The translations under genes were made by a program, and so were the position numbers. Below are positions 2,393 through 43,432 of a stretch of 64,000 nt of DNA, piece by piece. Positions within the stretch are counted from its first letter, which is position 1. Every line of letters begins with the position of its first letter. The DNA is from Fibrobacteria bacterium (GTDB taxonomy: Bacteria > Fibrobacterota > Fibrobacteria > UBA11236). The stretch covers positions 32,001 to 96,000 of the forward strand of contig JAYTHY010000006.1 of NCBI GenBank assembly GCA_043732185.1. The letters run 5' to 3'. The notes beneath the pieces are model-generated. The model did not search any database. It worked only from the letters and a program-made list of their open reading frames with translations, and had not been told where the DNA came from.

Positions 2393-5300
2393 CTAAAAAA
2401 CCGTCACCCTTTTCAGGAACGCAGTCCGACCCAATCTCTTTATTTTCACTACATACACACCCCTGTCAAGGCCCGGTAGCGTGAGCTGCCCGACATCACT
2501 AGCGGCCCCAGCGATCACTTTCCGAACTACAGCCTGCCCGCGAAGATTGATCAGTTCCACAACCAACACCTGCCCCTCCAGACGCCCGAACGTTAAATTT
2601 ATGCCACCGTTTATCAGCTTGGCGGAAATACCACCATATTCTTTGTGCAATGAAATGTGCGGATTTGTCTCAGTCGTCGCATCTGCATAAATAGGGACAT
2701 CATAAAACGTGAGCGCAGCAATATCATTCGCCCCATAGAGGATATTGTCCTCACTCCATGAACGACTGTCGAGGTAGGTAATTTTTGTTGCCGTGGACGC
2801 GGCGTTGAGTGCGAGGGTGAGCGTATTTCCAGATATTGCACCGGAGGCCACTTTTCCGCTCACACCATCCAGATAGAACTGTGAAATGAGAGACGTGGTC
2901 CATTTTACCGCCTGATCGAATTCCAAAGTGATCGCAGTTTTTCCGGTACTGGTGTAATAAGCCCTTTTAATGTTGGGCGGTGTAATGGAGGTGGTGAAAA
3001 CCTTGCCGTAATTGTCCCTTTCCACCAGCGGACTCATTAGGCGGACAAACTGCATATAGCCATCCGCCGAGGTATGGCAGCCCACTCCGGGTCGAACACC
3101 GATGGTCGACATGATACCCATATTCGAATACAGATTGGGTAAGGTCCTCTGTACCTCCCGAAGAATATTGTCCTGTCCTCCAATACCGCCTTGGGCACAA
3201 CCGTTCGGCCAGATTTGGAAAATGTAGTAGTGCTTGATATTGGGATAATCCTCTTTCCATGCCGATGACATATCCACAAAGTACTGTAGATAAGTCTGCC
3301 AGCCCCACAGGCCGCTCGGCCCATCCGAGTTCTGATCGGCCTCGCCTTGATGCCAGAGCACTCCTCGAATGCTGTGCGTCATTTTCGCGCGCTGGAGACG
3401 CGTCAGCAATCGGCCATAAATTGTGTTCGAATCCGTTGGGTTCGTCAGGCTGCGTTGGTGCAAATCGATGCGAGTGCCGCCTACAGCGCCATTGAAGAAG
3501 CAAATTGGAATTTTATACGTTGCGGCCAATTGCCGGCCAAGCTCCAGACCCCAGTATCCGATAGTTGCAGCGCCTCCCCCCGCGGCATGAACGGCATTGG
3601 CCCATCCGCTCCCGGGATTGCCATCACCGCTATTGCCGAAGGTTCTGACCCATTCGCTCGTGGTAGGATTCAGGTCTGTTCCAAAGGTCGTGCCCACGGC
3701 ATTGGATTGCCCTTCGATAATATAGGCGTCGCCGCAAAGCACGTTTGTCACTGTGCTGAGCACAGTCTCAGTCCCACTCGTTTTAGATCCGAATTCGAAT
3801 TTGTATTCCACGAGTCCAGGATCGATGTTTGGAGAAAAATCATAGGCGCCGGACGACATTTTCTGCGCTACGCGCTTAAAAAGGGTGGCGCCGGCATACA
3901 CATTCAAGTAAACGGAATCCGGTGTGGAGGTAAGTGCGCCCTTGTAATAGACAGTGCAAACATTTTTATCATCACGCGCATAGAATTGATTGTTCTCGGG
4001 TTTTTCAATGGCTCCGGGGGTGCGGTACACCCAGGAGTCCACATTCGGTTCCGTTACAACGATATCCGCTGAGTGGGTTACAGTCATACCACCATTGTTT
4101 ATGGAAAGAGTAACGGTCATCTTGCCAGTGCCTTGGGATCGTGTAAGCGTGAGCTTGCCCGGGGTTATTTGTTTACCCGCAGCGATATTGGCGACATTCC
4201 AAGCATAGGAAAGCGCGCCCACACCTTTCGCGTCCAATGCGGCTTGATTGGCGACCTGGGCGACCACGTTTATGGGGTCCCGGCCGTTCCAAGTGGCGGG
4301 AGCCGTCAAAGAGAATATGGGATCTGCTTGGTCTTCCTTGACGGTAATAGTGATATCCTGAGTCTTGACCTCAGTGGGATAAACGGCTTTTAACTGTATG
4401 ACGATATTTTTGTCACCGGTGACGCGCCCGGCAGAATAGGTATAGTTCAATTGGTCCACGGCCAGGATAACTCCCGCCCCGGTATCTTTAAGGATCCAAT
4501 ATATTTTCTGTGCACCCCCGGCCGTTGCCGTCAAAGTCGCGTTTTTCCCTTCGAGCACCGTGATTTGCGTCTGGGAGGCGGAAAAGGTCGTTCCGGTTGG
4601 AACAAGCGGACCCGCCAATGTTTGCATCGGCTTCTGATTTTCATAGGCAAGCTTCATCCACGCCGCGCTCCGCGTTTTGCTGGAGATGACGGCTTCGTCG
4701 ATGCTTCCATTGAAATAAAATCCATGCGATTGATTGCGACCGATATTCGTATTCTCTAAAGGCATTCCTAGTGGACCATTAAAAGTAGCGGTTTGCGAAA
4801 CTTGTGCCCCATTGATGTACGTGCGAATGGTTTTGTCCGACGCGCTCCAGGTAAATCCGACTAAATGCCATTGGCCGATGGAGGGAAAGGCATTATCGCT
4901 GTAAACCAATTCACCCGACCGTTGTGTATGGATGCGCGTTTTATAGGCTGTTCCATTTTTAAGCAGGAAGAGGGAATATCCCGGATCCGACCAACCGCCT
5001 CCGGAACCAAGAACTTGACCTTCTCCACCCAAGATATTTACCCAAGCAGAAACGGAAACATTTCCGGAAATCCTTTGGCTGGTCTTGTCGCCGCAATCGA
5101 TAAAGCTACTGGTACCGTTGAAAGCCTGGGCGCGTCCGACCATGCCTGTAATGTTGGATGCCCCTGTCATGGATGCACCTGTTCCGTTATTGGCATTGGC
5201 GGTAGCGTCTTTGTAAGCTCCAGCCGTGGTACTACCGGCCTCGTTTAAATGCCAGACTCCCTCGAAGCCGTTTGCCGTATCAAACACGGCGGCGCCGTTC

Positions 5301-5689
5301 GATTCACTCGCTGCTGCAGGATTCCCCCAGAACATTTTGATGCCTTGGCGTGCATTGCCGGTAATAGTCGGGATGCGAACCCAGATGGCGGCTTTGCCGT
5401 TGAAAACGTCCCACTCTTCCAATTGGTATGGTAGAGTAGCGCCCGCCATAGTGGAAAAACGGATGTCCTCACCATTGGTTTTCGCCTGGCTGAAGGTGAA
5501 GAAGTCCTTGTCCAACCGTACGAGAACGGGGAAACCGGTTTCGGTAACCCCAGCCGGTAGGTTTGCACCATCCGGAGTGGTGAGGATGAACAAGGAATCG
5601 GAATTGGACCAACCGGGATATTGGGCAAAGCCGTTTCCGCACAGAAATGCAGCGGCAAAAAGCATCATAAAACAGGCATTGTGCTTCAT
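2393..5689 (-). CDS. Secreted modular protein: DUF2341 + LamG/ConA + Ig-like + SASA (sialate O-acetylesterase-like SGNH) + T9SS-like CTD
   Basis: Signal peptide; GEDIRF..LPYQLEEWD (DUF2341); FNGSIDEAVIS (LamG); GQSNA, WHQGEAD and GCH (SASA); C-terminal LINLRGQ...GVYVVKI. Confidence 0.8.
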   Translation of the reverse strand: MKHNACFMMLFAAAFLCGNGFAQYPGWSNSDSLFILTTPDGANLPAGVTETGFPVLVRLDKDFFTFSQAKTNGEDIRFSTMAGATLPYQLEEWDVFNGKAAIWVRIPTITGNARQGIKMFWGNPAAASESNGAAVFDTANGFEGVWHLNEAGSTTAGAYKDATANANNGTGASMTGASNITGMVGRAQAFNGTSSFIDCGDKTSQRISGNVSVSAWVNILGGEGQVLGSGGGWSDPGYSLFLLKNGTAYKTRIHTQRSGELVYSDNAFPSIGQWHLVGFTWSASDKTIRTYINGAQVSQTATFNGPLGMPLENTNIGRNQSHGFYFNGSIDEAVISSKTRSAAWMKLAYENQKPMQTLAGPLVPTGTTFSASQTQITVLEGKNATLTATAGGAQKIYWILKDTGAGVILAVDQLNYTYSAGRVTGDKNIVIQLKAVYPTEVKTQDITITVKEDQADPIFSLTAPATWNGRDPINVVAQVANQAALDAKGVGALSYAWNVANIAAGKQITPGKLTLTRSQGTGKMTVTLSINNGGMTVTHSADIVVTEPNVDSWVYRTPGAIEKPENNQFYARDDKNVCTVYYKGALTSTPDSVYLNVYAGATLFKRVAQKMSSGAYDFSPNIDPGLVEYKFEFGSKTSGTETVLSTVTNVLCGDAYIIEGQSNAVGTTFGTDLNPTTSEWVRTFGNSGDGNPGSGWANAVHAAGGGAATIGYWGLELGRQLAATYKIPICFFNGAVGGTRIDLHQRSLTNPTDSNTIYGRLLTRLQRAKMTHSIRGVLWHQGEADQNSDGPSGLWGWQTYLQYFVDMSSAWKEDYPNIKHYYIFQIWPNGCAQGGIGGQDNILREVQRTLPNLYSNMGIMSTIGVRPGVGCHTSADGYMQFVRLMSPLVERDNYGKVFTTSITPPNIKRAYYTSTGKTAITLEFDQAVKWTTSLISQFYLDGVSGKVASGAISGNTLTLALNAASTATKITYLDSRSWSEDNILYGANDIAALTFYDVPIYADATTETNPHISLHKEYGGISAKLINGGINLTFGRLEGQVLVVELINLRGQAVVRKVIAGAASDVGQLTLPGLDRGVYVVKIKRLGRTAFLKRVTVF

Positions 5690-10331: not shown

Positions 10332-11696
10332 CTAGCCGGCCACGAACATGGATTCCACCAACAGATCCGGCACTTTAACCGAAGAGAAAGAATCCGAATA
10401 CTCTCGGGACAGCCCCCGGATGGCCAGGAGCAAGTCAAAAAAATTGGAGTTCAAAGTCAACTTGTCCACAGGTTTGATGCGCTTTCCCTGTTCGTACCAA
10501 AACCCTTGCGCGCCTATCGAGATTTCTCCGGAAATGGCAGAGCAGCCCGAACCACCATCCAGCTTGGTGACTAGCAAGCACTCAGGATAAGCGGAAAGCA
10601 AATCATTTAAATCTTCATCGCCTTTGGCTACTATATAATTTGAAAATCCAGTGCCGGCCTTTCCGGAATAACCACGTGAGCCATTACCCGTGGGCCTGCA
10701 ACCCGCCTTTTTTGCCGACTCCAAATTATAGAGATAGGTTTGGAGGATACCGTCCTTGACGATTTCCAGCGCCGAAGTCACCACGCCTTCGCCATCAAAA
10801 AGATGCGAACCGGGCGCCCCGGGAATATGCGGATTGCAAGTGATATTAAGTTTGGGAACCGCAATGGCCTGACCTACTTTTCCCGCAAGCCTGCTTTGGC
10901 CTTTCTGCACCGCATCGGCAAAGAAAGGAGAGCCGAACATGGACAAAATGGAACCGCTCACCCGATTGGAAAAAACCACCGGATAACGACCACTGGGAAT
11001 GGTTTCCGCACCCAAAAGCTCCACGGCCCGTTCCACGGCCTTGCCTGCCATGAAGGTCGCATTGAAGTCGAAGCTGCGCCCACCATTTGAATAGACGCCC
11101 ATCTTTTTGTTCTCGCCCTCTTTTGCCACCACGCCGATGCCGGCGCTCACTACATTGGACCGCGAAGAAAAAACGACACCTTTGGAATTCCGCACCATTG
11201 ACATTCCGGAAGAACGACTGGCACCAAGATAAGGAATATTATCGATACGCTTGTCAGCATCCCGTGCAAGCGATTCCAGCTCAAGCCCCAGGGCTTTCAT
11301 ACGGTCGAGACCAATATCTTCAAGCGCAGGATTGAATGATTTTAAATCGATGTCCGGTAAAGGTTCCGGATCCGGTAAATCCATATCCACCGCATCAGTA
11401 ATCAACGTATGACTCATGGCGTCCTTGACCGTCTGCCTAATCGCCTCTTTGGACATCTTTTCCGTAAAGGCGAATCCAGGACTTCGATTCTTGAACAGCC
11501 GGATGCCAATCCCTCTGGAGTTGGAGATTTCCGTACTTTTAACCTGACCTTCGAAAAGCTCTAAACCCATGCTTTCCGATTCCCCGACTACGGCATCAAA
11601 TTGCTCAGCCCCTTGCCGAGTCGCTTCGCTGCACATAAAATCAATGGCATCGATGGGTTTCAAGGACTCACCACCATCCATGGTCGGATTAGCCAT
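10332..11696 (-). CDS. pmbA: TldE/PmbA family protein
   Basis: GIGIRL, FDGEGV, GILQTYLYN, SGEIS.G..GF; no HEXXXH; TGATG overlap with tldD. Confidence 0.9.
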   Translation of the reverse strand: MANPTMDGGESLKPIDAIDFMCSEATRQGAEQFDAVVGESESMGLELFEGQVKSTEISNSRGIGIRLFKNRSPGFAFTEKMSKEAIRQTVKDAMSHTLITDAVDMDLPDPEPLPDIDLKSFNPALEDIGLDRMKALGLELESLARDADKRIDNIPYLGASRSSGMSMVRNSKGVVFSSRSNVVSAGIGVVAKEGENKKMGVYSNGGRSFDFNATFMAGKAVERAVELLGAETIPSGRYPVVFSNRVSGSILSMFGSPFFADAVQKGQSRLAGKVGQAIAVPKLNITCNPHIPGAPGSHLFDGEGVVTSALEIVKDGILQTYLYNLESAKKAGCRPTGNGSRGYSGKAGTGFSNYIVAKGDEDLNDLLSAYPECLLVTKLDGGSGCSAISGEISIGAQGFWYEQGKRIKPVDKLTLNSNFFDLLLAIRGLSREYSDSFSSVKVPDLLVESMFVAG

Positions 11697-13081
11697 CAGC
11701 GTCCGCCTACCAGGATATTGTCCACTTTGAGAGTCGGTTGGCCAACCATGACGGGAATGGAACCGGAAGCGGCCCCGCACATCCCTGCAGCCATTTCCAG
11801 ATCGTCGCCGACCATGGAAATGAGCGGCAGTATTTCCGGTCCCTTGCCGAGCAAAGTTGCTCCACGCACCGGTTCCATGATTTTTCCACCGCGAATCACA
11901 TAGGCTTCTTCCACCGAAAAATTGAATTCCCCGGTGGCCGGATTAACCGAGCCGCCGCCCATTTTTTTGGCGTACAAACCGTTCTCGATTCCGCCTATCA
12001 TGCTCGCAAGCGAAGAGGTCCCTCTATCGATGTAGGTATTGCGCATTCGAGATACTGGCGCGTATTGATAGGATTCCCGGCGCGAACTTCCAGTGATGCC
12101 TACCCCCGTTTCCTGCGCGCCAACCCGGTCGGACATGTAGCTCTGAAGAATACCGTCTTTGATCAGCACGGTTTTCTGCACCGCATTGCCCTCATCATCC
12201 ACGTTCAAGGATCCCCAGGCGTTCTGAATCGTTCCATCGTCGATAGCCGTTACCGCGGAATGGGCGATTTTTTCCCCGACTTTGCCCGCAAAGGGTGTGG
12301 CCTTGCGTCTCACTGCTTCCGTTTCCAGCAAATGCCCGCATGCTTCATGGAAGATCACCCCGCCGAAGCCGTTGCCCATAACCACCGGCATCTTCCCGCC
12401 CTTTACGTAACCGGATGACAGCATCAAGATGGCGCGCTCAGAGGCCTGCTTGGCAAAATGGGCGATGTCCAGGCTTTCAAAAAATTCGAATCCGCGCATG
12501 GTGCCCGGTGACTCGCTAGCCACAAAAATTTCCCCACCGGATTCCGCCGTGACATTGACCGTAAACCGGCAACGCGTGCGCGTGTCCTCCGTCCAAAGCC
12601 CTTCGCTATTGCAGATGAGCACATGCGAAACCACGTCTCCCGCACGTGAACTCACTTGGACGATTTTATCCGAATAACTTCTCGCCACCTGATCGGCGAG
12701 TTTGATGAGGTCCAGTTTTCTTTCTTGTCCGATTTCCCTGGGATCCTTGGTGATTTTATGGCGATTTTCAAATACCTTGCCGACCAGTTTTACCGTAGGC
12801 TCAGAGCTATGGTTGACGGCTATCCCTCGGCTCATAGCCAGATTGTCGATCAGCTTTATAATGTGGTTCTCTTCATCATTGCTGGAATGCGCATACAAGA
12901 CTTCCGTGCCATATACCAGGCGAATACCAAGCCCGTAATCGGTGCCTGCTGTCGCCGATTCCACTTTTCGGTCCCGGAAGGATACCGACGCGTTACGGGT
13001 CTCTTCTTGAAAAATTTCGACGAAGTCGGCTTTCCGATCCAAACCGGCTTGTAGTATCCGTTCCGCCTTAATTTTATCCAT
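11696..13081 (-). CDS. tldD: TldD metalloprotease
   Basis: FHEACGHLLE, DDEG, RMRNTY and a C-terminal GMCG...SIPV..GQP. Confidence 0.93.
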   Translation of the reverse strand: MDKIKAERILQAGLDRKADFVEIFQEETRNASVSFRDRKVESATAGTDYGLGIRLVYGTEVLYAHSSNDEENHIIKLIDNLAMSRGIAVNHSSEPTVKLVGKVFENRHKITKDPREIGQERKLDLIKLADQVARSYSDKIVQVSSRAGDVVSHVLICNSEGLWTEDTRTRCRFTVNVTAESGGEIFVASESPGTMRGFEFFESLDIAHFAKQASERAILMLSSGYVKGGKMPVVMGNGFGGVIFHEACGHLLETEAVRRKATPFAGKVGEKIAHSAVTAIDDGTIQNAWGSLNVDDEGNAVQKTVLIKDGILQSYMSDRVGAQETGVGITGSSRRESYQYAPVSRMRNTYIDRGTSSLASMIGGIENGLYAKKMGGGSVNPATGEFNFSVEEAYVIRGGKIMEPVRGATLLGKGPEILPLISMVGDDLEMAAGMCGAASGSIPVMVGQPTLKVDNILVGGR

Positions 13082-13136: not shown

Positions 13137-13622
13137 TTACTTGTCGCCGGGAAAGAGTGCGTCGAATTGGTCCGAGATCTGGTTTCCAGTCGTCCCTTCC
13201 GGCGGAAAATCTTCGACTTCATTGTTCTTTATGTCCATCAGCACTTCGTTCAGTTTTGCTTTTGCTTTTCCAGCAATCAGCTTGACTAATCCCAAATTGG
13301 TTCGATCATCGAAAATAAGCACCATGATCACATCTTCATCGACAAGAGAAATGTGGATATTCTCTTTTTCGCCTTGGTGGAACATCATCGAAAACTCAGT
13401 CTCACCGATCAAAGTCGCAATGGCCTTGGTCGAAGCGAAACTGCCGGCAGCTAGAGCCGCCAAAGTTGTTGCGTTTATTTTAGGGCTGAAGCCGACTTGG
13501 GAAATAAGATTCCCGTCTTTATTGATAAGGAGCACATACGAGGATGCCGACTCGGTAATAAGATGCGACAGGATTTTGTTGATCCGATCGATATCCTCTT
13601 TGTACAGGACAAAATCGCCCAC
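13137..13622 (-). CDS. mglB: MglB-type roadblock/LC7 protein (putative GAP for MglA)
   Basis: LLINKDG, TLAALAAGSFAST..IA.LIGE.EF..FHQGE, FDDRTNLGLVKL, and an acidic C-terminal helix ISDQFDALF; GTG start. Confidence 0.9.
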   Translation of the reverse strand: MGDFVLYKEDIDRINKILSHLITESASSYVLLINKDGNLISQVGFSPKINATTLAALAAGSFASTKAIATLIGETEFSMMFHQGEKENIHISLVDEDVIMVLIFDDRTNLGLVKLIAGKAKAKLNEVLMDIKNNEVEDFPPEGTTGNQISDQFDALFPGDK

Positions 13623-13624
13623 GC

Positions 13625-15268
13625 CTATTTTTCTTTTTTGAAAAGCCCGTCGAAGAATCCTTTTTTCTTCTCATTGGGATGCGGTAGCTTTTTGGTTTTG
13701 AAGGAATCGTTTTTGGCCATGTCCTCATAGGTGGTCACAATACCGCTGCGATCCACCTCACCAGGCACACCGCCACCACCGGAAGGCGTTGGCCCAGCCG
13801 TGGAAGGAGTAGGCGGCGTCGCTATCGGAAGGGGAGGAGGAGTCGGACTTGAAACCCGTTCACCAAAGGGTGTGGTCGGGAACGCGGCTCCAGGTTGTCC
13901 AGGAAATACTGGCATGGAGCTGGGCATAGGGCTTGGAGAGCCGCCAAATGGGTTCCCGGGGTTGGGGCTAGATTGTCCACCAAAATTTCCCTGGCCGAAA
14001 TTCGGCTGGGCGGGTGGCGCCATTCCCGGCGCCGGAGGTCGATTGGGAGCATTGCCAAAGCCAGGCATACCGGGTGGTAAACCTTGGTCTCCTGGTCGCC
14101 CACCCAAATTAAAAGCCGGTGGAGGCTGGCCAAAGCTTTGAATGCCAGGGCTGGTACCAATGGGATCTAAGGGTTTGGGTGTCAAGCTTGGCCCACCCGC
14201 CGACGGTGTGCCTGGAAATGCTGATTTTGGGGTTTGAAAGCCCTGTAGAAAAGGTGAAACTGGAATGCCAGAGGGTGGCGGTGTGAATCCACTTGGCGGT
14301 GGCGTAAAACCTGCAGGCCCATCCGATTTTGGAGGAAAGGCAGGTGGCGTGCCTGGGCTTTTACTGGCAAAAGGATTGTTGGCGGCAAAAGGATTATTAG
14401 CAGCGAAAGGATTCGCGCTCGGCGCGGCAAGCGGGTTGGCTTGTGGCGCACTGGTTGGGGGCCGAAAGCCGGGATCCGGTGGTCGGGATACTGGGTTCTG
14501 TGGCCCTGGAAAGGAAGGCCGAGCGGCGGGTCCACCAAAGCCAGGAAAAGGTTGGGGCGCGCTTATGGGAGGACGCATAGCAGGCGCCGCGGGCGAAGCT
14601 TGTTGTGTGGGCTTGGCAGCCGAGGCGCCTAACGAGGCCGCATCACCTGGACGAGCGGTGCGTCGAGTCCCTTGAAAGCCCGCGTACTTGGCATTGAACT
14701 TATCGATTACGTATTTTCCAATTCCCTTTAAAGTTGTAAAAACACCCACACCTGTTGCAGCAACTGCTTCATAATGAGGCAGTTTTAATTTATTCAGCAA
14801 TTCATTGAGCTGATCCACGGAATACACATTGGGTAAATCGCGTTTGTTGTACTGAAGCACCAAGGGAATGTTTTCGATGGAATGTCCATATTCCCTTAGG
14901 TTCTCTTGCAGGTTGGCAAAACTTTCCAGGTTTTCCTGAAGCTTATCCACTTGTGAGTCCACTACAAAAACCACGCCATCCACCCCGCGTAGCACAAGTT
15001 TTCGGGTGGCATTGTAATAGACCTGGCCTGGCACGGTATACAATTGGAACTTGGTCGAAAAGCCCTTAATGGATCCCAAATCGAGGGGAAGAAAATCGAA
15101 AAATAGAGTCCGGTCCGTTTCCGTGGCCAAGGACACCATTTCACTTTTATCCTTGTCCGGTATTTTTCGATGAATAATCTGTAAATTAGTGGTTTTTCCG
15201 CTCAGCCCAGGACCGTAATAGACGATCTTGCAGCTGATTTCCCGGGTTGCGTAATTAATAGATGCCAC
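13625..15268 (-). CDS. mglA: MglA family small GTPase with ~350-aa Pro/Gly-rich C-terminal extension
   Basis: KIVYYGPGLSGKTTNL (G1), DRTLFFDFLP (G2), YTVPGQ (G3), NKRD (G4), EAVA (G5); GTG start after GAGGAA. Confidence 0.93.
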   Translation of the reverse strand: MASINYATREISCKIVYYGPGLSGKTTNLQIIHRKIPDKDKSEMVSLATETDRTLFFDFLPLDLGSIKGFSTKFQLYTVPGQVYYNATRKLVLRGVDGVVFVVDSQVDKLQENLESFANLQENLREYGHSIENIPLVLQYNKRDLPNVYSVDQLNELLNKLKLPHYEAVAATGVGVFTTLKGIGKYVIDKFNAKYAGFQGTRRTARPGDAASLGASAAKPTQQASPAAPAMRPPISAPQPFPGFGGPAARPSFPGPQNPVSRPPDPGFRPPTSAPQANPLAAPSANPFAANNPFAANNPFASKSPGTPPAFPPKSDGPAGFTPPPSGFTPPPSGIPVSPFLQGFQTPKSAFPGTPSAGGPSLTPKPLDPIGTSPGIQSFGQPPPAFNLGGRPGDQGLPPGMPGFGNAPNRPPAPGMAPPAQPNFGQGNFGGQSSPNPGNPFGGSPSPMPSSMPVFPGQPGAAFPTTPFGERVSSPTPPPLPIATPPTPSTAGPTPSGGGGVPGEVDRSGIVTTYEDMAKNDSFKTKKLPHPNEKKKGFFDGLFKKEK

Positions 15269-15282
15269 AGGATTTTCCTCGG

Positions 15283-15624
15283 TTACTTAATTAAGGGGCT
15301 GACTTGAGCGATTTCCACCCGGATCAAGCCGGTATTGGCCTGGCTGTCCGCAAGCACAACCAGATAGCCTAATTCTACAACCTGGACAAAGAACTTGCCA
15401 TCGCTTGCTTCAATCATTGTCTGCATCAGTTGACCCGCCTGTGCATTTGCAACAATTTTATTGGCCACCTGCTGTACCGAAACGATAAGGGCGCTGATGA
15501 ATTCTGAAGGAACCGGAGTCCTGAAGTGGGACACAATCTCAATCCCGTCCGGACTGACGATACTCGAACCTTTGACGCCCTTGATCTGGTTTATTCTCTC
15601 CAATATAGTAAGCATTCCATTCAA
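15283..15624 (-). CDS. Roadblock/LC7 domain protein (MglC-like); the start may be the ATG at 15615
   Basis: GVKGSSIVSPDGI, G.L.Q.MIEA..G, YLVVLA...ANTGLIR pattern. Confidence 0.8.
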   Translation of the reverse strand: MNGMLTILERINQIKGVKGSSIVSPDGIEIVSHFRTPVPSEFISALIVSVQQVANKIVANAQAGQLMQTMIEASDGKFFVQVVELGYLVVLADSQANTGLIRVEIAQVSPLIK

Positions 15625-16049
15625 CTCCGTATATAGCCACGTTCATGTAAGAGGCGGGCAATGGCAAGGGCCCCGCGGTCTATCCGAAATTTGAATAAAT
15701 CATAACTTCCCCGGGTTCCGGCGACGACGAGAAAGAATAAGTCCAATTGTCCCAAATTGACTATCAAGTGAAAATGATGTTCATCAAACGACACAGAATG
15801 TTCCAATGGGCCCATCCCCAGCATTCTGTATTGAGCCAACGATTCCTGAAAACTGGCTAGAAAATAAGGGGATTCGATAAAATGGTTTTGCTGGCTCTCC
15901 TCTCCCCAGGCCACGACCAACCCTTCGCGACTGTAGAGAATGGCTCCGGTAATACCCTTCACCAGACTTAAGTATCCAAGGCATCGGTCCAAATCCTGTG
16001 ACTCAACGAGCTTGTTGATGTCAGTGGGTGCCAGATCGAGTTTACTCAT
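15621..16049 (-). CDS. Divergent roadblock/LC7-like protein
   Basis: VKGITGAILYSREGLVV...LGMGPLEH...FLVV pattern; overlaps both neighbours. Confidence 0.65.
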   Translation of the reverse strand: MSKLDLAPTDINKLVESQDLDRCLGYLSLVKGITGAILYSREGLVVAWGEESQQNHFIESPYFLASFQESLAQYRMLGMGPLEHSVSFDEHHFHLIVNLGQLDLFFLVVAGTRGSYDLFKFRIDRGALAIARLLHERGYIRS

Positions 16050-16920
16050 GAGTCAAATTACCTACTGCGTGAGGCCCCATATTGGCGCGCACTTTGGCCG
16101 AAGCGGCCTGTTTTTGAAAAATATTTTCCGCTCGTACCATGGTCAGCAGGGATTGGTTGATGTTTCCAGTTACAAGCTCGAGACATTCTGCGCCCATATG
16201 CAGAGAGGTCACCGTCAAATTCTGGAAGGAAAAACAGATCTTGTGAATTTCTCCACCCTCCAACGCATCACACGTATTGGCAATGGCACCCGGAAGAATT
16301 TGTGGCAGTAAGTTGACCAAGGAGGCGAGATTCGAATTTCGGCTGGTGGACTTGTATCGGTTTTGCGCCTGATTTCCAAGAACCAATGCCTGCGTATTGT
16401 CATCCATCACTAAACTTTGATAGATACCAAAATCTCCCTCACCGAGCTCGAAGGCCGCCATATTAGGTGTGGAAATTGCCGGAGGAACCGGAAGAATGCT
16501 GGCTGCCGCCGAAAAAGAGGCCACTGGAGTGACTGCACCCAATGAGTTCGCGGGAACTTCTGATGGCCGTCCTTGCCATGCCATCCATTCTAAATAGATA
16601 CTCGATTCGAGCAGTGACAAAGCCACCAAATCGTTGGGATGCCGGTGCAGGTGCGAAACCAGCTTCTGTTTCACCTGTTGGTGTTCACCGGTTTCAATCC
16701 CGATTTGGGTCTGTAAGTAAAAAACCATATCCTTGAATCGCGTAGTTTGCTTGCCTTCCAAACTTTGCAAAACATGATTGGCCAAATCGTATTTCTTGCG
16801 CCGAATAAGCAGACATGCATACGCTAGAGTACTCGAACTTTGAATAAAACTCTGGCATATCACATCCCCCATGAGGACGCTTTCGGCGGTTTTAACTTCG
16901 TGCTGGGTTGCCGTGGACAT
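16042..16920 (-). CDS. TPR + linker + degenerate roadblock-like domain protein
   Basis: N-terminal TPR-like helices (HPNDLVALSLL), an Ala/Pro linker, and a C-terminal alpha/beta pattern (DALEGGEIHKICFSF). Confidence 0.55.
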   Translation of the reverse strand: MSTATQHEVKTAESVLMGDVICQSFIQSSSTLAYACLLIRRKKYDLANHVLQSLEGKQTTRFKDMVFYLQTQIGIETGEHQQVKQKLVSHLHRHPNDLVALSLLESSIYLEWMAWQGRPSEVPANSLGAVTPVASFSAAASILPVPPAISTPNMAAFELGEGDFGIYQSLVMDDNTQALVLGNQAQNRYKSTSRNSNLASLVNLLPQILPGAIANTCDALEGGEIHKICFSFQNLTVTSLHMGAECLELVTGNINQSLLTMVRAENIFQKQAASAKVRANMGPHAVGNLTHE

Positions 16921-16928
16921 TCAAATTC

Positions 16929-18020
16929 TCATTTAAGTTGGTAAGTTTTTTTGGTGATTTTCTTATACACCGGTTTATTTCCAATCGGGCCGCTGACCTC
17001 GTTTGGAACCAATGCCCCCTCTTCAACCAGCACTTTTAGAGTCGCAGGTAGATTGTTTTGCCTATCCGCATGATCCACCAGTAGCACTTCAATATTATCG
17101 TACGCAAAATGATTCGCTATTTTCATTGCATACCCTCCCTGTGAGCTCTGCTTGGAAGTCGATGAAAGGTCTAGGCTGAGGAACCAATAGGAAACGAACC
17201 GCAAGACCAGGGCCAGCAGCAAAAACATGAAAGCCGTACCCAGTACCATGGCCGTTTTCCTATCCTTTTCATTTTGGGGATCGGCAGCGGCAGGCAAATC
17301 GATTTCCTCGACCGAATCCGCCACTGGGGCGACAAACCCACCCTCCCATAAATTTACAAGGCATTCGGAGAGTCGGAAAGAGCCAAAGGGAACTTGTTTG
17401 GCGATTTGTGCCACGCTCTTCCGTCCATCAACCAGCCCCAACACCAAATAGTCCCAGCCTAATTGGTCGCCGTCATAGGTTTTTTCCATGAGGTTGAAAA
17501 CGACTTTGGGATCGGGTATGGACTCCTTAAGTCGCGGCCACTCATCTATGCGCCGCATTCCCTCCATACAGGCAAATTCTGTGGAAATATTCAGTTGCAT
17601 GGAAATGGAGGATTGCGCCTTTAGTCCGGTCCCAAAATCATATTGCCCTTTGAGCCATCCAAACAGTTCACAAACCATGTCCTCGGAAATGATCTGTAGC
17701 CATTCTTTCTTGTCCTCATCGGTCAAATGACCTTTGGCGGCCAAGGTTGTCAGCAAGGGACGATTCATTTCTCTGGACATGGACTCCAGTTCATGCATCT
17801 CATCCTTTTCCACCTTGCCGGAGGCGATCAGCATTTCTTTGATAATATCCTCGGGCATCTCGCCATTCACTCTAACTCCATTGACATTGCCAGCGGAGAT
17901 GAAAATTTCAGCCTTTTCTTTCCCGTTAACCAAATTGAGCACACCGGACTTGCGCTGTTGCAACAATAGTTGCAGGACATCGGCCAGAGAGAAGTCTTTT
18001 AAATCCCCGGAAAGCTTCAT
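16929..18020 (-). CDS. DUF4388 (PATAN-like) domain membrane protein
   Basis: LSGDLKDFSLADVLQLL..QRKSGVL, MEGMRRIDEW, LVDGRKSV; one TM near the C-terminus; ATGA overlap. Confidence 0.85.
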   Translation of the reverse strand: MKLSGDLKDFSLADVLQLLLQQRKSGVLNLVNGKEKAEIFISAGNVNGVRVNGEMPEDIIKEMLIASGKVEKDEMHELESMSREMNRPLLTTLAAKGHLTDEDKKEWLQIISEDMVCELFGWLKGQYDFGTGLKAQSSISMQLNISTEFACMEGMRRIDEWPRLKESIPDPKVVFNLMEKTYDGDQLGWDYLVLGLVDGRKSVAQIAKQVPFGSFRLSECLVNLWEGGFVAPVADSVEEIDLPAAADPQNEKDRKTAMVLGTAFMFLLLALVLRFVSYWFLSLDLSSTSKQSSQGGYAMKIANHFAYDNIEVLLVDHADRQNNLPATLKVLVEEGALVPNEVSGPIGNKPVYKKITKKTYQLK

Positions 18021-20236
18021 CGAAAAGTCTCCTTTTCGACGGCAGCGGAAGCAGCCATCAGTTCACCGACATTGACGGGAGTGCGGAGGAGCTTGATATT
18101 GAACAAAAGATAAAATAGCGCGATAGGTAGCCAAGGCAACCAGTGGAAAGGGCCAATCACAAAGCTGGGATACTCCATGAGGAGGTGGTTCACTTGCCAA
18201 AGGCCGCCCATCAGAAATCCTGTTGCCAGAATCCAAACAAACCGCCCCGTGCCCAAACCTAAAAACAAAAGTCCGGTCCCTGGCCAAAGCGAATTAAGCA
18301 CGGCTCCGATACGCAAGCGTTGTACGGTCGAGCGCATGCGCATACGTTTTACCATTTCCATTTTCACCCGGTTATCATGAATTCCGGAAACTGTTTTAAA
18401 ACATGTGTGACAATGCACGCCTTTACGACAAAGACGGCACATGACCCGGTTACAAATTTTGCAGTCGAACAAATCCTTCCCATGGCTATGTTGAGAATGA
18501 TGTCGAAAGCGGAAATGCAGCAACAAGGCGACGATACCGACCATGGCGAGCAGCCAACCACCCATAATTTCATAAATTCCGGTACTGACCCACACACCTA
18601 GAAAATCCAATCCAATCAAAGAATTCCACGCTGCGGTCCAAGCCAACCGATTTCTCAACATGGGATCCATCGCCTTACGTGTGGCCGGATACTCAGGAAA
18701 ATATTCGTCGTTGTCCTTCAAAAACTGGTTGACCCATTGTGGGTCCACCTCGGCTGCTCGATCCAGGTATTTTTTATGCCGAGTCGAATTGTTGGAATAC
18801 AATTCCGCCTGACTGGAGTTGAACCATGTTTCCACCATGTTGGGCGCAATTCTACGGGCTTCTGTGAAAGCGGTGGACGCGCCGGTGTAATCAAATCCCA
18901 CCATAGCCAGATTCCCATTATTGAGAAGCACATACGGATTGGAAGGTTCAATTTGAGACGCCAAGCGGCCAAATTCTCCTGCCTTAATATATTCTCCTTG
19001 CTTTTTATAGGTCAAGGAATAGGCCAGGCTGCGATAAAGACTGTCTTCCTGGGTTTTGGCTTTGAAGGCTTCCATTCGCGTGATTAGGGGTGCTTCATAT
19101 CCGCGATTATAGGCGCGGTGATAAAGATTGACTCCCAGGGTATCATCCAGGTGACGCACCATGGTTTGCTCCCACATAAAGAGGAATGGGATCAAGGCCA
19201 GACCCGTCATCAGGACTTTTAGAAAAGTTTTTTCTTGATTGGTCACATGTTTCCAGAGCAGCATGGTAAAGGCCAGGCCCAATGCCACATACCCCAATCC
19301 ACCTATCATCAGGCTTAAAGGAAGGAGGGCCAAAGCGAAATATCGGATCCAGATTTCCACTTGATTCGGAAGCCGCTCGACCCATAAATGGGTGATGCGC
19401 GAAAAGTATTTTCCGAAGAGAACCAGCAAGGCAACTGCGCCAAAAAAGGCCAGGCCCATGCGAAAGGCACGAGACATATTGACTATGAAAAGAGATTGGC
19501 TGTCGTAATATTGCAGCAATCTGGCAGCCTCGGTGAGCCGCGTCCAAGCGGCGCTCAAATCCCAATTGAGCGGGGGCTTTTCCCGGAACTCCATCTCCAT
19601 CAATATAAAAGGAACCCAAGGACAGAGCGGATCGAGCTTTCCAGCAAACTCGGCAGCCTGTCTCGCGACCAAATATAAGCCCTGGCCCATCGCCTCACGG
19701 GCACGGAGCAATTCCAGCTTCGCGAGTTCGGGAACCTTGATATAGCCTTTTTCCAGCATGTTGCGCTGAACTTCCAGTTGTAATAAATGCGCTCTTTGGT
19801 ACAGCCCGTTTTGGGTAAGAATCCTAGCCATTTCATAGTTAACGGCAATGTTACCTTTGGCCAATTGGGTTGCCATGAGGAGTTCCGTCTCGCCATTGCC
19901 AGCCTTGGTTTTGTCCAAAGCGAGACCCACGCTGAAATTGGCCCATAAATCGGCAAAGGTCGGCGCCTCCGGATTGGTCACGGCTGCAGGATGTGCTTCA
20001 CGCACATGCTGGATAAGGACCGGGAGCTCTGTCGCACTGATGGAATTGGCGAAAAGTTTTATGCTGGGGGGGAAACGTTCTTGAAAATCCCAACGCGAAA
20101 ACACGGTTTCCCGCAGCGATTCCAATACTTGAACTTGGGCCATAAGAGGAGCCGCCAGGCAAAGCAGCAGCCTGATACATCTAATAGGGTTGATCAAATC
20201 ACTCCCAATCCAGGGTGAAACAAGACAAGCCTCCAA
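18017..20236 (-). CDS. Multi-pass membrane protein with TPR repeats and a 6-Cys cluster
   Basis: Signal-like N-terminus; TPRs (EPSNPYVLLNNGNL, APNMVETWFN); several TM blocks; CKICNRVMCRLCRKGVHCHTC. Confidence 0.75.
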   Translation of the reverse strand: MEACLVSPWIGSDLINPIRCIRLLLCLAAPLMAQVQVLESLRETVFSRWDFQERFPPSIKLFANSISATELPVLIQHVREAHPAAVTNPEAPTFADLWANFSVGLALDKTKAGNGETELLMATQLAKGNIAVNYEMARILTQNGLYQRAHLLQLEVQRNMLEKGYIKVPELAKLELLRAREAMGQGLYLVARQAAEFAGKLDPLCPWVPFILMEMEFREKPPLNWDLSAAWTRLTEAARLLQYYDSQSLFIVNMSRAFRMGLAFFGAVALLVLFGKYFSRITHLWVERLPNQVEIWIRYFALALLPLSLMIGGLGYVALGLAFTMLLWKHVTNQEKTFLKVLMTGLALIPFLFMWEQTMVRHLDDTLGVNLYHRAYNRGYEAPLITRMEAFKAKTQEDSLYRSLAYSLTYKKQGEYIKAGEFGRLASQIEPSNPYVLLNNGNLAMVGFDYTGASTAFTEARRIAPNMVETWFNSSQAELYSNNSTRHKKYLDRAAEVDPQWVNQFLKDNDEYFPEYPATRKAMDPMLRNRLAWTAAWNSLIGLDFLGVWVSTGIYEIMGGWLLAMVGIVALLLHFRFRHHSQHSHGKDLFDCKICNRVMCRLCRKGVHCHTCFKTVSGIHDNRVKMEMVKRMRMRSTVQRLRIGAVLNSLWPGTGLLFLGLGTGRFVWILATGFLMGGLWQVNHLLMEYPSFVIGPFHWLPWLPIALFYLLFNIKLLRTPVNVGELMAASAAVEKETFR

Positions 20237-20255
20237 AAATCCCTGAGCCGTAGCA

Positions 20256-21659
20256 TCAGGATTGCGCTTTTAAACCGTATCGTTCAATCTTCCTATAAAG
20301 CGTGGAAATATCCAACCCCAGAATCTTGGCTACGGTCGGTTTATGCCACTGATTTTCGGTAAGCACCCAAAAAATATAAGCCTTTTCGATGTCGTTGAGG
20401 GTCGGTGATACGCCGACCCCAAAGGCGCGTTCCCCAGCTGGCATGGAACCGGAACCTTCCATTTTCCCTGTCCGTGGCAAGGTGTGGCCCTGATCCAGTT
20501 CAGTCACTGTTGTGCTGGGCAAGTCCAGCTCCAACGTTTCAATAGATTCACTGGTACTGAAGGCAATAGCCCTCTCTACCGCATTTTCCAATTGTCGTAC
20601 ATTTCCAGGCCAGGCATAGGCTTGAATTTGCTCTAGAGCGGTTGCGGTGAAAGACTTACGGCCTCCGCTTTTTCTTTGTAAAAAATAGTTTGCGAGCAGA
20701 ATGGAATCTTCACTCCGCTCAGCCAAAGCCGGTGTATTGATACGCAGCACATTGAGCCGATAGTACAGATCTTCCCGAAATTGTCCCTGCGCTACTGCAT
20801 CCTCAAGGTTCACATTGGTCGCGGCTAAGATACGGACGTCGATTCGAGAGGAAGCTGTGCCGCCAACCTGAGTGATTTCCCGCTCCTGGATGACCCTCAA
20901 AAGCTTGACCTGAGTGCGGAGCGGCATTTCCCCGATCTCGTCCAGGAACACGGAGCCACCGTTGGCAACGGCGAATAAGCCATCCTTGTCGGCATGTGCC
21001 GAAGTAAACGATCCTTTCACATGACCGAATAATTCCGACTCCAGCAAACTCTCGGAAAGCGAAGAGCAATTGACCACTACAAATGGTTTTAAGGAACGCA
21101 AGGATTTTTGATGGATGAGCTTTGCCACCAGTTCTTTGCCGGTCCCGCTCTCCCCTGTAATGAGCACTGTGCTTTCCGAGGAGGCGATGGCGTTGATCCG
21201 GTCCTTAAGTTGGAGAAAAATCGGAGATTGACCGATTAACTCAACGCCTTGCCGTCGAATGAAGTCCTTCAGCTCACGGTTTTCAGTTTCCAGTGTCCGC
21301 GTTGCCACGGCCTTCTCGACCACTTTTCCCAAAAAAACCATTTCGAAAGGTTTGGAAATAAAATCAAATGCTCCCAGCTTTACAGCCTCAACGGCCTTTT
21401 CAACTGTCCCATAGGCAGTCATGACAACCACAGGAACCCGCGGGAAGCGGTCGAGCAGCGCCTTGACTAGGGTGAGTCCTGAACCTTGACCTAAAGCCAA
21501 ATCAACCATGGCCAATAAGGGCTCAGGGCCATCCAAGAGCTTGAGTCCGGCTTCAACGCTATGGGCGGAAACCGTCGCATACCCTTTTTTTTCGAAAAAC
21601 ACTTCTAGCAGCGCACAAAGCGATACTTCGTCATCAACGATGAGTACTTTAGGTTTCAT
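20256..21659 (-). CDS. NtrC/PilR-family sigma54-dependent response regulator (REC-AAA+-HTH)
   Basis: VDDE...VDL...KPF; GESGTGKE; ESELFGH; FLDEIGE; FREDLYYRLNV; WPGNVRQL; Fis-type HTH. Confidence 0.92.
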   Translation of the reverse strand: MKPKVLIVDDEVSLCALLEVFFEKKGYATVSAHSVEAGLKLLDGPEPLLAMVDLALGQGSGLTLVKALLDRFPRVPVVVMTAYGTVEKAVEAVKLGAFDFISKPFEMVFLGKVVEKAVATRTLETENRELKDFIRRQGVELIGQSPIFLQLKDRINAIASSESTVLITGESGTGKELVAKLIHQKSLRSLKPFVVVNCSSLSESLLESELFGHVKGSFTSAHADKDGLFAVANGGSVFLDEIGEMPLRTQVKLLRVIQEREITQVGGTASSRIDVRILAATNVNLEDAVAQGQFREDLYYRLNVLRINTPALAERSEDSILLANYFLQRKSGGRKSFTATALEQIQAYAWPGNVRQLENAVERAIAFSTSESIETLELDLPSTTVTELDQGHTLPRTGKMEGSGSMPAGERAFGVGVSPTLNDIEKAYIFWVLTENQWHKPTVAKILGLDISTLYRKIERYGLKAQS

Positions 21660-21722
21660 CCCGGCAATTATCTCACTTTATTCGAATACTGTCTGTTGGC
21701 CAAATGGAAAAGAGTACATAAC

Positions 21723-21747
21723 AAAAACCCGCCCAAAGAGGCGGGTT
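21723..21747 (-). terminator. Rho-independent terminator downstream of rpsT
   Basis: AACCCGCC/GGCGGGTT stem followed by a T-run on the minus strand. Confidence 0.8.
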
Positions 21748-21805
21748 CAACTACCGAAAATTAAGTTTAGCTCCACTCCTATTGGTGAAACCGTCGAATG
21801 CCACC

Positions 21806-22069
21806 TTACGCGGACTTGGCTGCAACGAGCTTGTGGATCTTACGTTTGTAGTTGGAAGCCGTGTTTTTGGTAATGCCGGCTCGACCATTTTGGGCAGCTT
21901 TATCGAGCATGGAAAAAAGATGGGGCATTTCTGCGACCATGGTCTCCTTTTTATCGGCCGTACGTATCTTCTTTAACGTGCTGCGAATGGCCGAACGAAC
22001 GGCGCGATTGGCCAAACGGGATTTTTCTGCGGTAATGACCCTCTTTTGGGCGGATTTGTTCTTGGCCAA
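21806..22069 (-). CDS. rpsT: 30S ribosomal protein S20
   Basis: KSAQKR...NRAVRSAIRS.LKK...LDKAA..I.KNTA; TTG start after GGAGG. Confidence 0.92.
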   Translation of the reverse strand: MAKNKSAQKRVITAEKSRLANRAVRSAIRSTLKKIRTADKKETMVAEMPHLFSMLDKAAQNGRAGITKNTASNYKRKIHKLVAAKSA

Positions 22070-42445: not shown

Positions 42446-43432
42446 TTGAAATCCCAACCAACGGCACCACTAAAGATTTGTTTCGTCCTATCCTCCATTG
42501 GTGGTCCGCGCATGCTCAACCCACTGTTTTCCGGCACTTTAAAACAGGACGTGGCTTATATCGTTATACAACGCTTGGCCGGGCCGGGCCTGCTCGATGT
42601 TTTAGTGGAGTGTCTACGCGAAGAGCTAAACGTTAGAACCATGGTGGCGGGTCATTCCCTGCACCTGCAAGGCGGCATCCTTCACTTTCTTCCCAATGAG
42701 CGTCATTATGCATTCAAGGGGGACAAGCTTGTAGCCGTTGAACTACCTGCCAAGACTGAGCTTAGCCTGGATCATCTGTTTAAGTCCGTGCTGGACTTTC
42801 CCAATGCCTGCGCGGTAGTGGTACTTTCCGGCATGCTTACAGATGAAGACGGCTTAGCCGGACTCGCCGAGCTTAAAAAGAGAGGCGTGCACATCCTCGG
42901 CGCATTGGAAAATCAAACGCCCGTTTTCGATATGATCGAACAGCTGCGCACCTTAGGACTTATGGGAGAACTCCTTCCGACCAAGCACTTACTCGAACAC
43001 TTGCGTTTTGGACCTGGGGATACAATTGGTTCTCTAAGGAGAGACGGATCTTCAGAAGCCGCAAAAGTTCTGGTCGCCGACGACGAGGAAAAAGTTAGGA
43101 CAGTAATAGTTGAAATGCTGCTGTCGCAGGGGTTTGTCGTGGACTTTGCCGTAGATGGGCTCGACGCTTTACGTAAATTACAAAAACAACATTTCGACAT
43201 ACTTATCCTAGACTTGCACATGCCGGAAATGGATGGGCTCAAGACTTTAGAAGCCCTGAAAAACATTGATCCAAAACTTCCCATTGTAATCATGACGGGC
43301 AGCAACGATACAGCCAAGGTCCAGGCAGCCAAAGAATTCAATGTTTTGGGAGTGCTGCAGAAGCCTTTCGGGTGGGAAAAGCTGAAAAAAATTCTGCCGC
43401 AGCCTAGCAGGCGTGCGGCAGAATTGAAATAA
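42446..43432 (+). CDS. CheB-methylesterase-like domain fused to a C-terminal receiver domain
   Basis: SSIGG, SLDHLFKS, VVLSGM..DG..GL..LK..G; REC motifs ADDE, LDLHMP, MTG, KPF. Confidence 0.75.
   Translation: MKSQPTAPLKICFVLSSIGGPRMLNPLFSGTLKQDVAYIVIQRLAGPGLLDVLVECLREELNVRTMVAGHSLHLQGGILHFLPNERHYAFKGDKLVAVELPAKTELSLDHLFKSVLDFPNACAVVVLSGMLTDEDGLAGLAELKKRGVHILGALENQTPVFDMIEQLRTLGLMGELLPTKHLLEHLRFGPGDTIGSLRRDGSSEAAKVLVADDEEKVRTVIVEMLLSQGFVVDFAVDGLDALRKLQKQHFDILILDLHMPEMDGLKTLEALKNIDPKLPIVIMTGSNDTAKVQAAKEFNVLGVLQKPFGWEKLKKILPQPSRRAAELK

Follow-up and report, generated by a model that had tools for sequence, protein, structure and literature searches.

MglA and MglB are the model for a Ras-like switch that sets polarity in bacteria, and almost all of the mechanism has come from one organism. 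MglA of the characterized systems is a small single-domain protein, and in Myxococcus it sorts pilus ATPases. Eukaryotic Ras and Rho GTPases carry C-terminal anchors, and MinD and FtsA carry amphipathic membrane-targeting helices. Gene neighborhoods that join the PATAN domain with MglB and MglA were reportedly described by Makarova et al. in 2006. A 2014 survey set the size of its MglA proteins as 'small (<240 aa)' (aa, amino acids) and defined group 1 by a switch I Arg and the sequence TVPGQ, and group 2, that of the conservons, by GTPGQ (PMC4316618). A table published in 2010 already included a 313-aa MglA-like protein of Fibrobacter succinogenes, as a longer 'group II' form that lacks an MglB partner (PMC3000849). 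Here we describe an mgl locus in a 64,000-nucleotide (nt) stretch of DNA from a Fibrobacteria bacterium (positions 32,001 to 96,000 of contig JAYTHY010000006.1; hereafter, the window), in which eight co-oriented open reading frames (ORFs) on the minus strand span positions 13137–21659. As judged from sequence, the locus is a conserved Fibrobacterota operon and a variant of the known bacterial MglA switch.

We propose that the locus encodes an MglA/MglB switch assembled at the inner membrane, with a tail-tethered MglA, a membrane platform, roadblock modulators and a motility output, and we put the probability of this joint reading at roughly 0.5. A long disordered tail would keep MglA close to the membrane, its C-terminal basic-aromatic motif serving as an amphipathic membrane-binding helix. 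A polytopic Cys-cluster protein and a PATAN-transmembrane (PATAN-TM) protein would form a platform or landmark where the switch acts, to which they would contribute a PATAN domain and a Zn-ribbon-like module in the cytoplasm. A heterodimer of the C-terminal domain (C-domain) of a 292-aa protein with a 142-aa roadblock protein, together with a 113-aa roadblock protein, would modulate MglA or MglB, on the analogy of Myxococcus MglC and RomY. The switch would in turn exert spatial control over a motility apparatus, for which type IV pili are the likeliest candidate. An NtrC-like regulator would add a transcriptional layer in two families.

Four features are particular to the locus: a phylum-wide long-tailed MglA with a conserved terminal peptide, a fixed pair of PATAN-TM and Cys-cluster membrane proteins, a ratio of one GTPase to four roadblocks, and a natural series of core, expanded, fused and reduced forms. 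None of them was described in the literature searched; the supplements of the 2014 survey may list such loci. The original prediction, made from the window before this analysis, had stated that no characterized Mgl system was known in such an organism. This agrees with the same literature, although MglA homologs of Fibrobacteres were already included in surveys (PMC4316618, PMC3000849).

Gene order and distribution in the Fibrobacterota

Twenty loci around MglA were taken from the related genomes, 47 of 61 of which had an MglA match, and a scan of 185,579 species genomes with a degenerate pattern for the Cys motif of the 739-aa polytopic protein yielded 38 loci. Several contigs are common to both sets, which are therefore not independent. 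All eight genes were present in order in the eight loci of the source's own family (f1), and the same order, with a divergent protein in the slot of the 292-aa protein, was found in the three loci of family f4. The two loci of family f2 had neither the regulator nor MglB, and their extra roadblocks were fused in a protein of 411 or 500 aa. The seven loci of the Fibrobacter-like family f5 were limited to rpsT, an mglA for about 320 aa, a short MglB-like gene and a pair of conserved ORFs, one of about 153 aa and the other of about 960 aa. The MglB-like ORF of the Fibrobacter-like loci is divergent, 138–141 aa in length and directly downstream of mglA (blastp E of about 1e-15 to 1e-16). The ORFs of about 153 aa and of 950–990 aa were seen downstream of the reduced mglA–mglB pair in L039, L041–L045 and L047, with no Pfam family in the L039 copies.

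Of the 38 loci with the Cys motif, 36 are titled Fibrobacterota, Fibrobacteres, Fibrobacteria, Chitinispirillia, Chitinispirillales or Chitinispirillaceae, and one 'uncultured bacterium'. The remaining locus (L093) is a 1.5-kb contig titled Bifidobacteriales, with matches for the membrane-protein gene (E = 6e-114) and the PATAN-TM gene (2e-94), and is probably misbinned. Maps made with hidden Markov models (HMMs) placed these two genes side by side in 38/38 loci. All nine HMM matches occurred in order in 14/38, and most of the other long-type loci were cut by contig ends. Ten loci, mostly titled Chitinispirillia, were of a short type: seven had the membrane gene, PATAN-TM, a long mglA and mglB with no extra roadblock and no regulator, two had mglA at the contig end (one seen by tblastn only), and one had no mglA within the 1 kb available. 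The original prediction had depended on synteny in relatives, which was found in 8/8 same-family loci and in the 14 complete Cys-motif loci. Because the same order recurs in relatives, chance adjacency of the eight genes was ruled out.

These maps indicate that the four-gene core of membrane protein, PATAN-TM, long MglA and MglB spans two classes and is the older core, and that the sigma-54 regulator, like the three extra roadblocks, was added later and only in certain lineages, namely some families of the Fibrobacteria. Given that it is absent from f2 and from all ten short-type loci, the regulator is not part of the conserved core. Likewise, the short-type loci without extra roadblocks show the membrane-pair core and the extra roadblocks to be separable sets.

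A survey of the phylum covered 296 genomes, with G011 counted in the tallies for the membrane protein, FlhA and PilT. The membrane protein was found in 108/296 genomes, with 0/151 in f5 and 108/145 in all other families (source genome, G000, included), and a hand comparison showed that 101 of these 108 also have MglA. The 142-aa family was detected in 35 genomes and only in f1 (20/31, without G000), f2 (2/6), f3 (1/1) and f4 (11/12). MglA was present in 245 genomes, with open frames mostly of 300–850 aa, FlhA in 133 and PilT in 278/296, the source genome included. Fibrobacter-like genomes keep only mglA–mglB of the cluster. Genus g4, in the source's family, comprises 12 genomes of about 2–2.7 Mb, one of 3.8 Mb, with matches to MglA in 2/12, the membrane protein in 2/12, the 142-aa family in 2/12, FlhA in 1/12 and PilT in 3/12. 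The reduced g4 genomes lost the module together with motility genes.

MglA, MglB and the membrane-linked proteins

The mglA gene (13625–15268) encodes a protein of 547 aa that matches Pfam small-GTPase families. Residues 1–190 align with MglA of M. xanthus (E = 2.4e-78), and the G domain also matches MglA of T. thermophilus (2.9e-72). The G domain (residues 1–196; 14680–15268) carries the marks of group 1, as read in the translation and alignment: the P-loop GPGLSGKTT, the switch I Arg (intrinsic finger), TVPGQ at G3, and NKxD in the form NKRD. Given that mglB starts 2 nt after its stop codon, mglA lies within four genes of mglB, the distance used to recognize MglA. The protein is well over the <240 aa of the single-domain small GTPases in the 2014 survey; it had been taken for a plain small GTPase, with its tail of about 350 residues unmentioned.

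This tail consists of 24% Pro, 14% Gly, 11% Ala and 8% Phe. Its spacer (about residues 197–531; 13673–14679), rich in Pro, Gly, Ala, Ser and Phe, is unalignable and variable in length among relatives, with a C-terminal end that is conserved: the last 15 or so residues (13628–13672) form a basic-aromatic motif of the type KGF[F/L]xxLFxK. In same-family orthologs the last 40 or so residues form a block whose final residues are of the KKKGFFDGLFKK type, and MglA proteins of Chitinispirillia end in QKGF[L/I/M]xKLFNK-type sequences. A simple pattern for the motif was matched, at 1–5 residues from the end, by 18/25 long MglA ORFs of the Cys-motif loci, in two classes; of the other seven, six have the ending of family f4 and one is cut by the contig end. 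The helical hydrophobic moment of the motif falls in the 91st–99th percentile of windows of its own tail, on a hydrophobicity scale other than that of Eisenberg, with which Arg-rich windows swamp the moment. The motif is possibly an amphipathic membrane-binding helix, and a tail with such a putative end may provide a simpler route to the membrane than a roadblock scaffold. A true MinD, sought in the source genome for comparison with the motif, was not found there, and a literature search returned no description of an MglA with a membrane-targeting element.

The 161-aa product of mglB (13137–13622), which follows mglA as originally noted, scored 44.9 bits with Pfam Robl_LC7 (cut-off, 23) and aligned with M. 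xanthus MglB over residues 4–157, the C-terminal segment included (E = 3.4e-28). Its match to the NCBIfam equivalog for MglB (1e-24, 87.4 bits) is below the cut-off of 200 of that model, which was built on the Thermus type. By these alignments, the protein is MglB, a homolog of the roadblock GTPase-activating protein (GAP) and the cognate partner of MglA. The source genome (4.46 Mb, 100% complete by its quality estimate) contains a single MglA match and only two Pfam Robl_LC7 matches, all at this locus.

The 739-aa polytopic protein (18017–20236) has a signal-peptide-like NH2-terminus, hydrophobic segments at about residues 257–355 and 557–575 and a hydrophobic COOH-terminus by hydropathy, and it also contains two helical soluble regions, each of about 200 aa. 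Within a very basic stretch, residues 592–612 include three CxxC pairs, and the sequence F-x-C-x2-C-x4-C-x2-C-R-K-G-x2-C-x2-C (residues 590–612) is invariant or nearly so in ten orthologs from four families. The Cys cluster is probably cytoplasmic, and the two helical regions are probably extracytoplasmic. The Cys cluster and membrane segments that had been assigned to this protein were thus both seen, whereas its tetratricopeptide repeat (TPR) matches were weak (E = 0.004) and below the Pfam cut-off.

The 363-aa PATAN-TM protein (16929–18020) matched Pfam PF14332 (DUF4388/PATAN) with 86.5 bits (cut-off, 25) over residues 4–161, for a model of 122 positions, with a helical insertion, and 28/28 orthologs matched the same family. 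One hydrophobic, transmembrane segment (residues 258–276) is followed by a C-terminal extracytoplasmic tail of about 85 aa, in keeping with the previous description of a DUF4388-TM protein. A T2SSG pseudopilin domain in this tail was considered on the basis of Atlas look-alike clusters carrying T2SSG on 11% and 81% of their members; it was rejected, with 0/28 orthologs matching at E<=1 and no pseudopilin in the PDB profile search. In that search the helical insertion (residues ~55–108) weakly matched MshE, a pilus ATPase, in its N-terminal domain (E = 0.031), which binds cyclic di-GMP; we regard this match as a lead, not a finding. A second DUF4388 gene lies on the same contig about 1.4 kb past the window end (G000:C6:97444-97740, in a 373-aa frame), and two more are located elsewhere in the source genome.

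The first gene of the unit (20256–21659) encodes a 467-aa NtrC-family regulator with REC, AAA+ sigma-54 interaction (Sigma54_activat) and HTH_8 domains, all above Pfam cut-offs, including the lid and a Fis-type helix-turn-helix; no NCBIfam equivalog exceeded its cut-off. A sigma-54 regulator had been placed at the head of the cluster, as found here. A RomR-like REC protein had been said to be lacking, and none of the genes has the RomR architecture, although the head gene does carry a REC domain. Upstream lies rpsT (21806–22069), followed by a strong intrinsic-terminator-like hairpin (21725–21748, minus strand; 10 pairs, 6 of them G-C, and a T run) that, as a sequence feature, marks the upstream boundary of the eight-gene unit. 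A sigma-70-like promoter match (21667–21695, minus strand; 9/12 with TG), identified by consensus alone, is situated 8 nt upstream of the regulator start codon. From the regulator onward, the seven junctions measure +19, -4, +8, -8, -4, +14 and +2 nt, as the original prediction had it (overlapping or 2–19 nt apart), and this spacing suggests co-transcription of the eight genes. On the downstream side, tldD begins 55 nt past mglB, with no predicted terminator in the gap. The pair tldD and pmbA (10332–13081, minus strand) is also adjacent in several same-family loci, with variable spacers and inserted ORFs.

The position of the regulator bears on a different reading of the unit, according to which the large, helical extracytoplasmic domains of the 739-aa protein would sense a cue from the envelope or from outside, the GTPase and roadblocks would relay it, and the NtrC-like protein would switch sigma-54-dependent genes. 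Actinobacterial conservons offer a precedent in their membrane sensor, roadblock and MglA-like GTPase (PMC4316618). In addition, the regulator heads the unit right after the terminator and promoter-like site and is kept at the head in f1 and f4, and two cluster proteins have extracytoplasmic parts. However, f1 and f4 are the only families in which it holds this place, and its absence from the older core weakens such a transcriptional role. The cluster contains no histidine kinase, and its MglA, with TVPGQ and the switch I Arg, belongs to group 1, not to conservon group 2 (PMC4316618). Moreover, -24/-12-like sites for sigma-54 occur at chance level across the window (78 found vs 72.5 expected), and a sigma-54 promoter within the cluster was rejected because this pattern count is no more than chance. 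We therefore judge conservon-like signaling to be a distinctly improbable account of the locus and prefer the membrane-assembled switch.

Roadblock-fold proteins and the output of the switch

The original prediction counted four roadblock-type domains, and four were found: those of MglB and the 113-aa protein by sequence, and those of the 142-aa protein and the C-terminal half of the 292-aa protein by AlphaFold models. The 292-aa protein (16042–16920) matched no family in Pfam or NCBIfam. In its alignment, conserved N-terminal and C-terminal parts flank a variable Pro-rich linker. The AlphaFold2 model, obtained with a 43-row alignment, has a mean predicted local distance difference test score (pLDDT) of 84.6, exceeding 90 over the C-domain, and shows a helical repeat (residues 12–116), a disordered Pro-rich linker (~120–160) and a roadblock-fold domain (165–280). 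The elements of this domain are a helix (165–171), two strands (176–183 and 188–193), a helix (196–219), three strands (227–231, 236–242 and 245–251) and a helix (254–280), in the alpha-beta-beta-alpha-beta-beta-beta-alpha order of the Roadblock/LC7 fold. The top Foldseek matches in the PDB were an Asgard roadblock, M. xanthus MglB, MP1 and dynein LC7, with E of about 4e-4 to 2e-3 and template modeling scores of 0.5–0.7 on the target; for the Asgard roadblock, MglB and MP1, E was about 4e-4 and the scores were 0.55–0.68. Rows 1–11 were MglB, LC7, MP1 and archaeal or Streptomyces roadblocks, and all rows listed were roadblock-fold proteins or complexes containing them.

The divergent 142-aa protein (15621–16049) passed the Pfam cut-off for MAPKK1_Int, the LAMTOR3 family (29.5 bits vs 25), and reached only E = 0.034 with Robl_LC7, below the cut-off; MAPKK1_Int is precomputed for 14/62 of its homologs. 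Its AlphaFold2 model (pLDDT 92.1; predicted template modeling score 0.87) matched roadblocks in Foldseek, T. thermophilus MglB (template modeling score 0.69–0.73, root-mean-square deviation 2.5 Å) and LAMTOR2 among them. A profile of the family reaches Pfam Robl_LC7 proteins such as P0160, and roadblock rows were non-significant in its PDB profile search (E = 0.66–1.2). Given that Pfam reported no LAMTOR1 or Rag-type roadblock domain among the cluster proteins, we did not classify the 142-aa protein as a LAMTOR3 ortholog. Among 1.84 billion proteins, the family comprised 25 cluster representatives at E<=0.001, of which three repeat proteins were regarded as spurious and about ten are ordinary Robl_LC7 proteins. 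On these models, we are confident that the 292-aa C-domain and the 142-aa protein both adopt the roadblock fold, the point on which the earlier assignment hinged.

The 113-aa single-domain Roadblock/LC7 protein (15283–15624) scored 35 bits with Robl_LC7 (cut-off, 23). A phmmer search of the PDB at E<=10 matched it to Asgard and dynein roadblocks and to no MglC entry; MglC structures are in the PDB (PMC7949163). The label 'MglC-like' that had been given to this protein thus finds no sequence support in that search, and it was dropped. Comparison of the shallow roadblock alignments with hhalign gave weak matches of the 142-aa with the 113-aa family (E = 0.0022), of the 113-aa family with MglB (0.00091) and of the 292-aa C-domain with the 113-aa family (0.015), and nothing for the remaining pairs among the four.

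Prediction of a complex between the 292-aa C-domain and the 142-aa protein gave interaction prediction scores from aligned errors (ipSAE) of 0.75, 0.78 and 0.75 vs 0.00, 0.00 and 0.46 for controls. The runs agreed in at least 87% of contacts, with a partner pLDDT of at least 78, and the pass mark is reached by 116/157 solved complexes and by 2/215 mismatched pairs. The predicted interface consists of helix 2 and strand 3 of both chains, as in the canonical roadblock dimer. In f2, a helical domain and roadblocks are fused in one ORF, with two roadblocks in the 411-aa form (L046 8502–9737) and three in the 500-aa form (L040 8514–10016); both were also found as database proteins. These fusions are independent support, at the level of gene structure, for the extra roadblock domains acting together. 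The hetero-oligomers foreseen for the divergent roadblocks are thus borne out as a prediction for this pair, and the heterodimer is supported but not shown. No Pfam Robl_LC7 match was found anywhere in three f2 genomes (0/3), one of which is 98% complete, and canonical MglB was likewise not found there; the fused protein may therefore stand in for MglB.

The extra roadblocks might instead serve only as soluble modulators of the MglA/MglB cycle, as a co-GAP, a GAP inhibitor or an MglB substitute, with no tie to the membrane proteins. MglC and RomY modulate MglB in Myxococcus (PMC9481161, PMC7949163), short-type loci carry the membrane pair with MglA and MglB and lack any extra roadblock, and the fused roadblocks of f2, with no Robl_LC7 protein beside them, fit a replacement of MglB. 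On the other hand, the membrane protein is present in 35/35 genomes that have the 142-aa family, and the extra genes separate the PATAN-TM gene from mglA, with stop and start codons that overlap. We consider a purely soluble role unlikely and favor roadblock modulators working within the membrane-assembled switch.

Type IV pili are our first choice of output because MglA sorts pilus ATPases in Myxococcus, PATAN binds the pilus motor in cyanobacteria, PATAN genes are known neighbors of mglA/mglB and the source genome has PilB/PilT-like genes, with one such pair on contig C99. The cyanobacterial evidence comes from Synechocystis, in which PilB1 and PilC are bound by the PATAN domain of regulators (preprint 10.1101/2021.06.11.447907). 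The membrane pair and MglA could also control the placement or function of the flagellum. The organism had been described as flagellated, and the window does contain flgK (62094–63785) and a flagellin-family gene (60897–62075), both on the minus strand; FlhA lies elsewhere in the source genome. By hand comparison, FlhA is present in 95/108 genomes with the 739-aa membrane protein vs 38/188 without it, and the non-flagellated Fibrobacter-like genus g16 has the membrane protein in 0/101 genomes and MglA in 100/101. However, given that the genomes are kin, this association largely amounts to one or two losses. The flagellated genus g24 (FlhA in 14/14 genomes) has neither MglA nor the membrane protein (0/14 each), whereas G124, G126 and G127 (94–96% complete) have both and no FlhA match, and we know of no MglA system that acts on flagella. 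With exceptions in both directions among related genomes, a flagellar role was kept as a rival only, with little chance of being correct, and we retain pili as the output of the proposed switch.

Several points weigh against the membrane-assembled switch. Continuity of the eight-gene operon is predicted from gene spacing, and the membrane-helix idea for MglA comes from a sequence pattern. Families f4, f2 and f5 have different conserved MglA C-terminal peptides, which rules out membrane tethering as what the tail does in general. For the 739-aa protein, topology was read by eye from hydropathy and charge, and this protein tracks flagellated lineages, as the FlhA counts show. The complex prediction covers a single pairing, that of the 292-aa C-domain with the 142-aa protein; the control that scored 0.46 was the one with the partner kept, and, because roadblock dimers have already been solved, the pass may reflect likeness only. 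Contact with MglA is hypothetical for the roadblocks, for PATAN and for the Cys cluster alike, and so are two points of the original prediction, a linkage of both membrane proteins to MglA by the roadblocks and a possible envelope-sensing function. Finally, with PilT found in nearly every genome of the phylum, its co-occurrence carries little information.

A whole phylum thus carries a long-tailed MglA, often with a putative membrane-binding-type end, that is encoded with two dedicated membrane proteins. If the proposed contacts are true, the locus would offer a tractable example of a bacterial small GTPase tethered to the membrane. The four-gene core, the eight-gene expansion, the fused form without MglB and the two-gene form would be a natural series for the role of extra roadblocks. 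The locus would also point to a set of candidate partners for PATAN, a domain that is still poorly understood, and provide a regulator of motility or adhesion in relatives of Fibrobacter, an important fiber degrader.

Two other genes of the window were noted. A CheB-type protein (42446–43432, plus strand) has its methylesterase (residues 14–185) first and its receiver (208–316) last, the reverse of the usual order, and a 1098-aa protein (2393–5689, minus strand) combines DUF2341, LamG-like and SASA-type carbohydrate esterase domains.

Comparison with known systems

The closest known system is the module of Myxococcus and Thermus, which shares a group-1 MglA G domain and a full-length MglB homolog with this locus. 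The Myxococcus module, comprising MglA, MglB, MglC, RomR/RomX and RomY, likewise has extra roadblock-fold paralogs beside MglB, and PATAN proteins near the M. xanthus system are listed as candidates near pilus regulators (PMC11580455). Unlike in Myxococcus, mglA precedes mglB here, the cluster has no RomR-type protein, and the 113-aa protein lacks an MglC match in the PDB. The tail of about 350 aa on MglA and the two membrane proteins encoded in the unit also set the locus apart from Myxococcus and Thermus. The operon has four roadblock domains, whereas the maximum given in the 2014 survey is two MglB per MglA, and the long MglA would fall outside its set of small proteins (PMC4316618).

A DUF4388/PATAN gene adjoins mglA/mglB in some group 1 and group 5 neighborhoods, as it does here (PMC4316618). 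Unlike in the surveyed neighborhoods, the PATAN protein of this locus is membrane-anchored and always accompanied by the polytopic Cys-cluster protein (38/38 loci). The actinobacterial conservon (CvnA–D) is similar in outline, with a membrane protein, a roadblock and an MglA-family GTPase in one operon. This locus differs in having no histidine-kinase-like CvnA, in a GTPase of group 1, and in that Pfam identified no CvnC-type family in the eight proteins.

The tail resembles the anchors of Ras and Rho in its arrangement of a G domain, a variable disordered linker and a short basic or hydrophobic C-terminal element; unlike those anchors, it has no lipidation motif and a far longer linker, and its membrane binding is putative.

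Ragulator–Rag (LAMTOR1–5 with RagA/C), the eukaryotic likeness named in the original prediction, holds in part. Several roadblock-fold proteins, at least one predicted heterodimer with a helix-2/strand-3 interface, a 142-aa protein that passes the LAMTOR3 cut-off and a probable membrane association of the whole are common features. In contrast, a lipidated wrapper like LAMTOR1 is missing, and the GTPase itself carries no roadblock domain. Prokaryotic roadblocks and MglB rank equally with LAMTOR proteins among the best fold matches, and homology is at the superfamily level only. It is doubtful that the locus is the Fibrobacterota counterpart of an anchored small GTPase with a hetero-roadblock scaffold, in which a tail-tethered MglA would sit on a platform of the 292-aa/142-aa heterodimer, a further roadblock, MglB and two envelope-reporting transmembrane proteins, as an independent origin of Ragulator-like logic. 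The locus is analogous in layout to the conservon and to Ragulator but belongs to neither, and the Myxococcus and Thermus module is the nearest relative of the switch described here.

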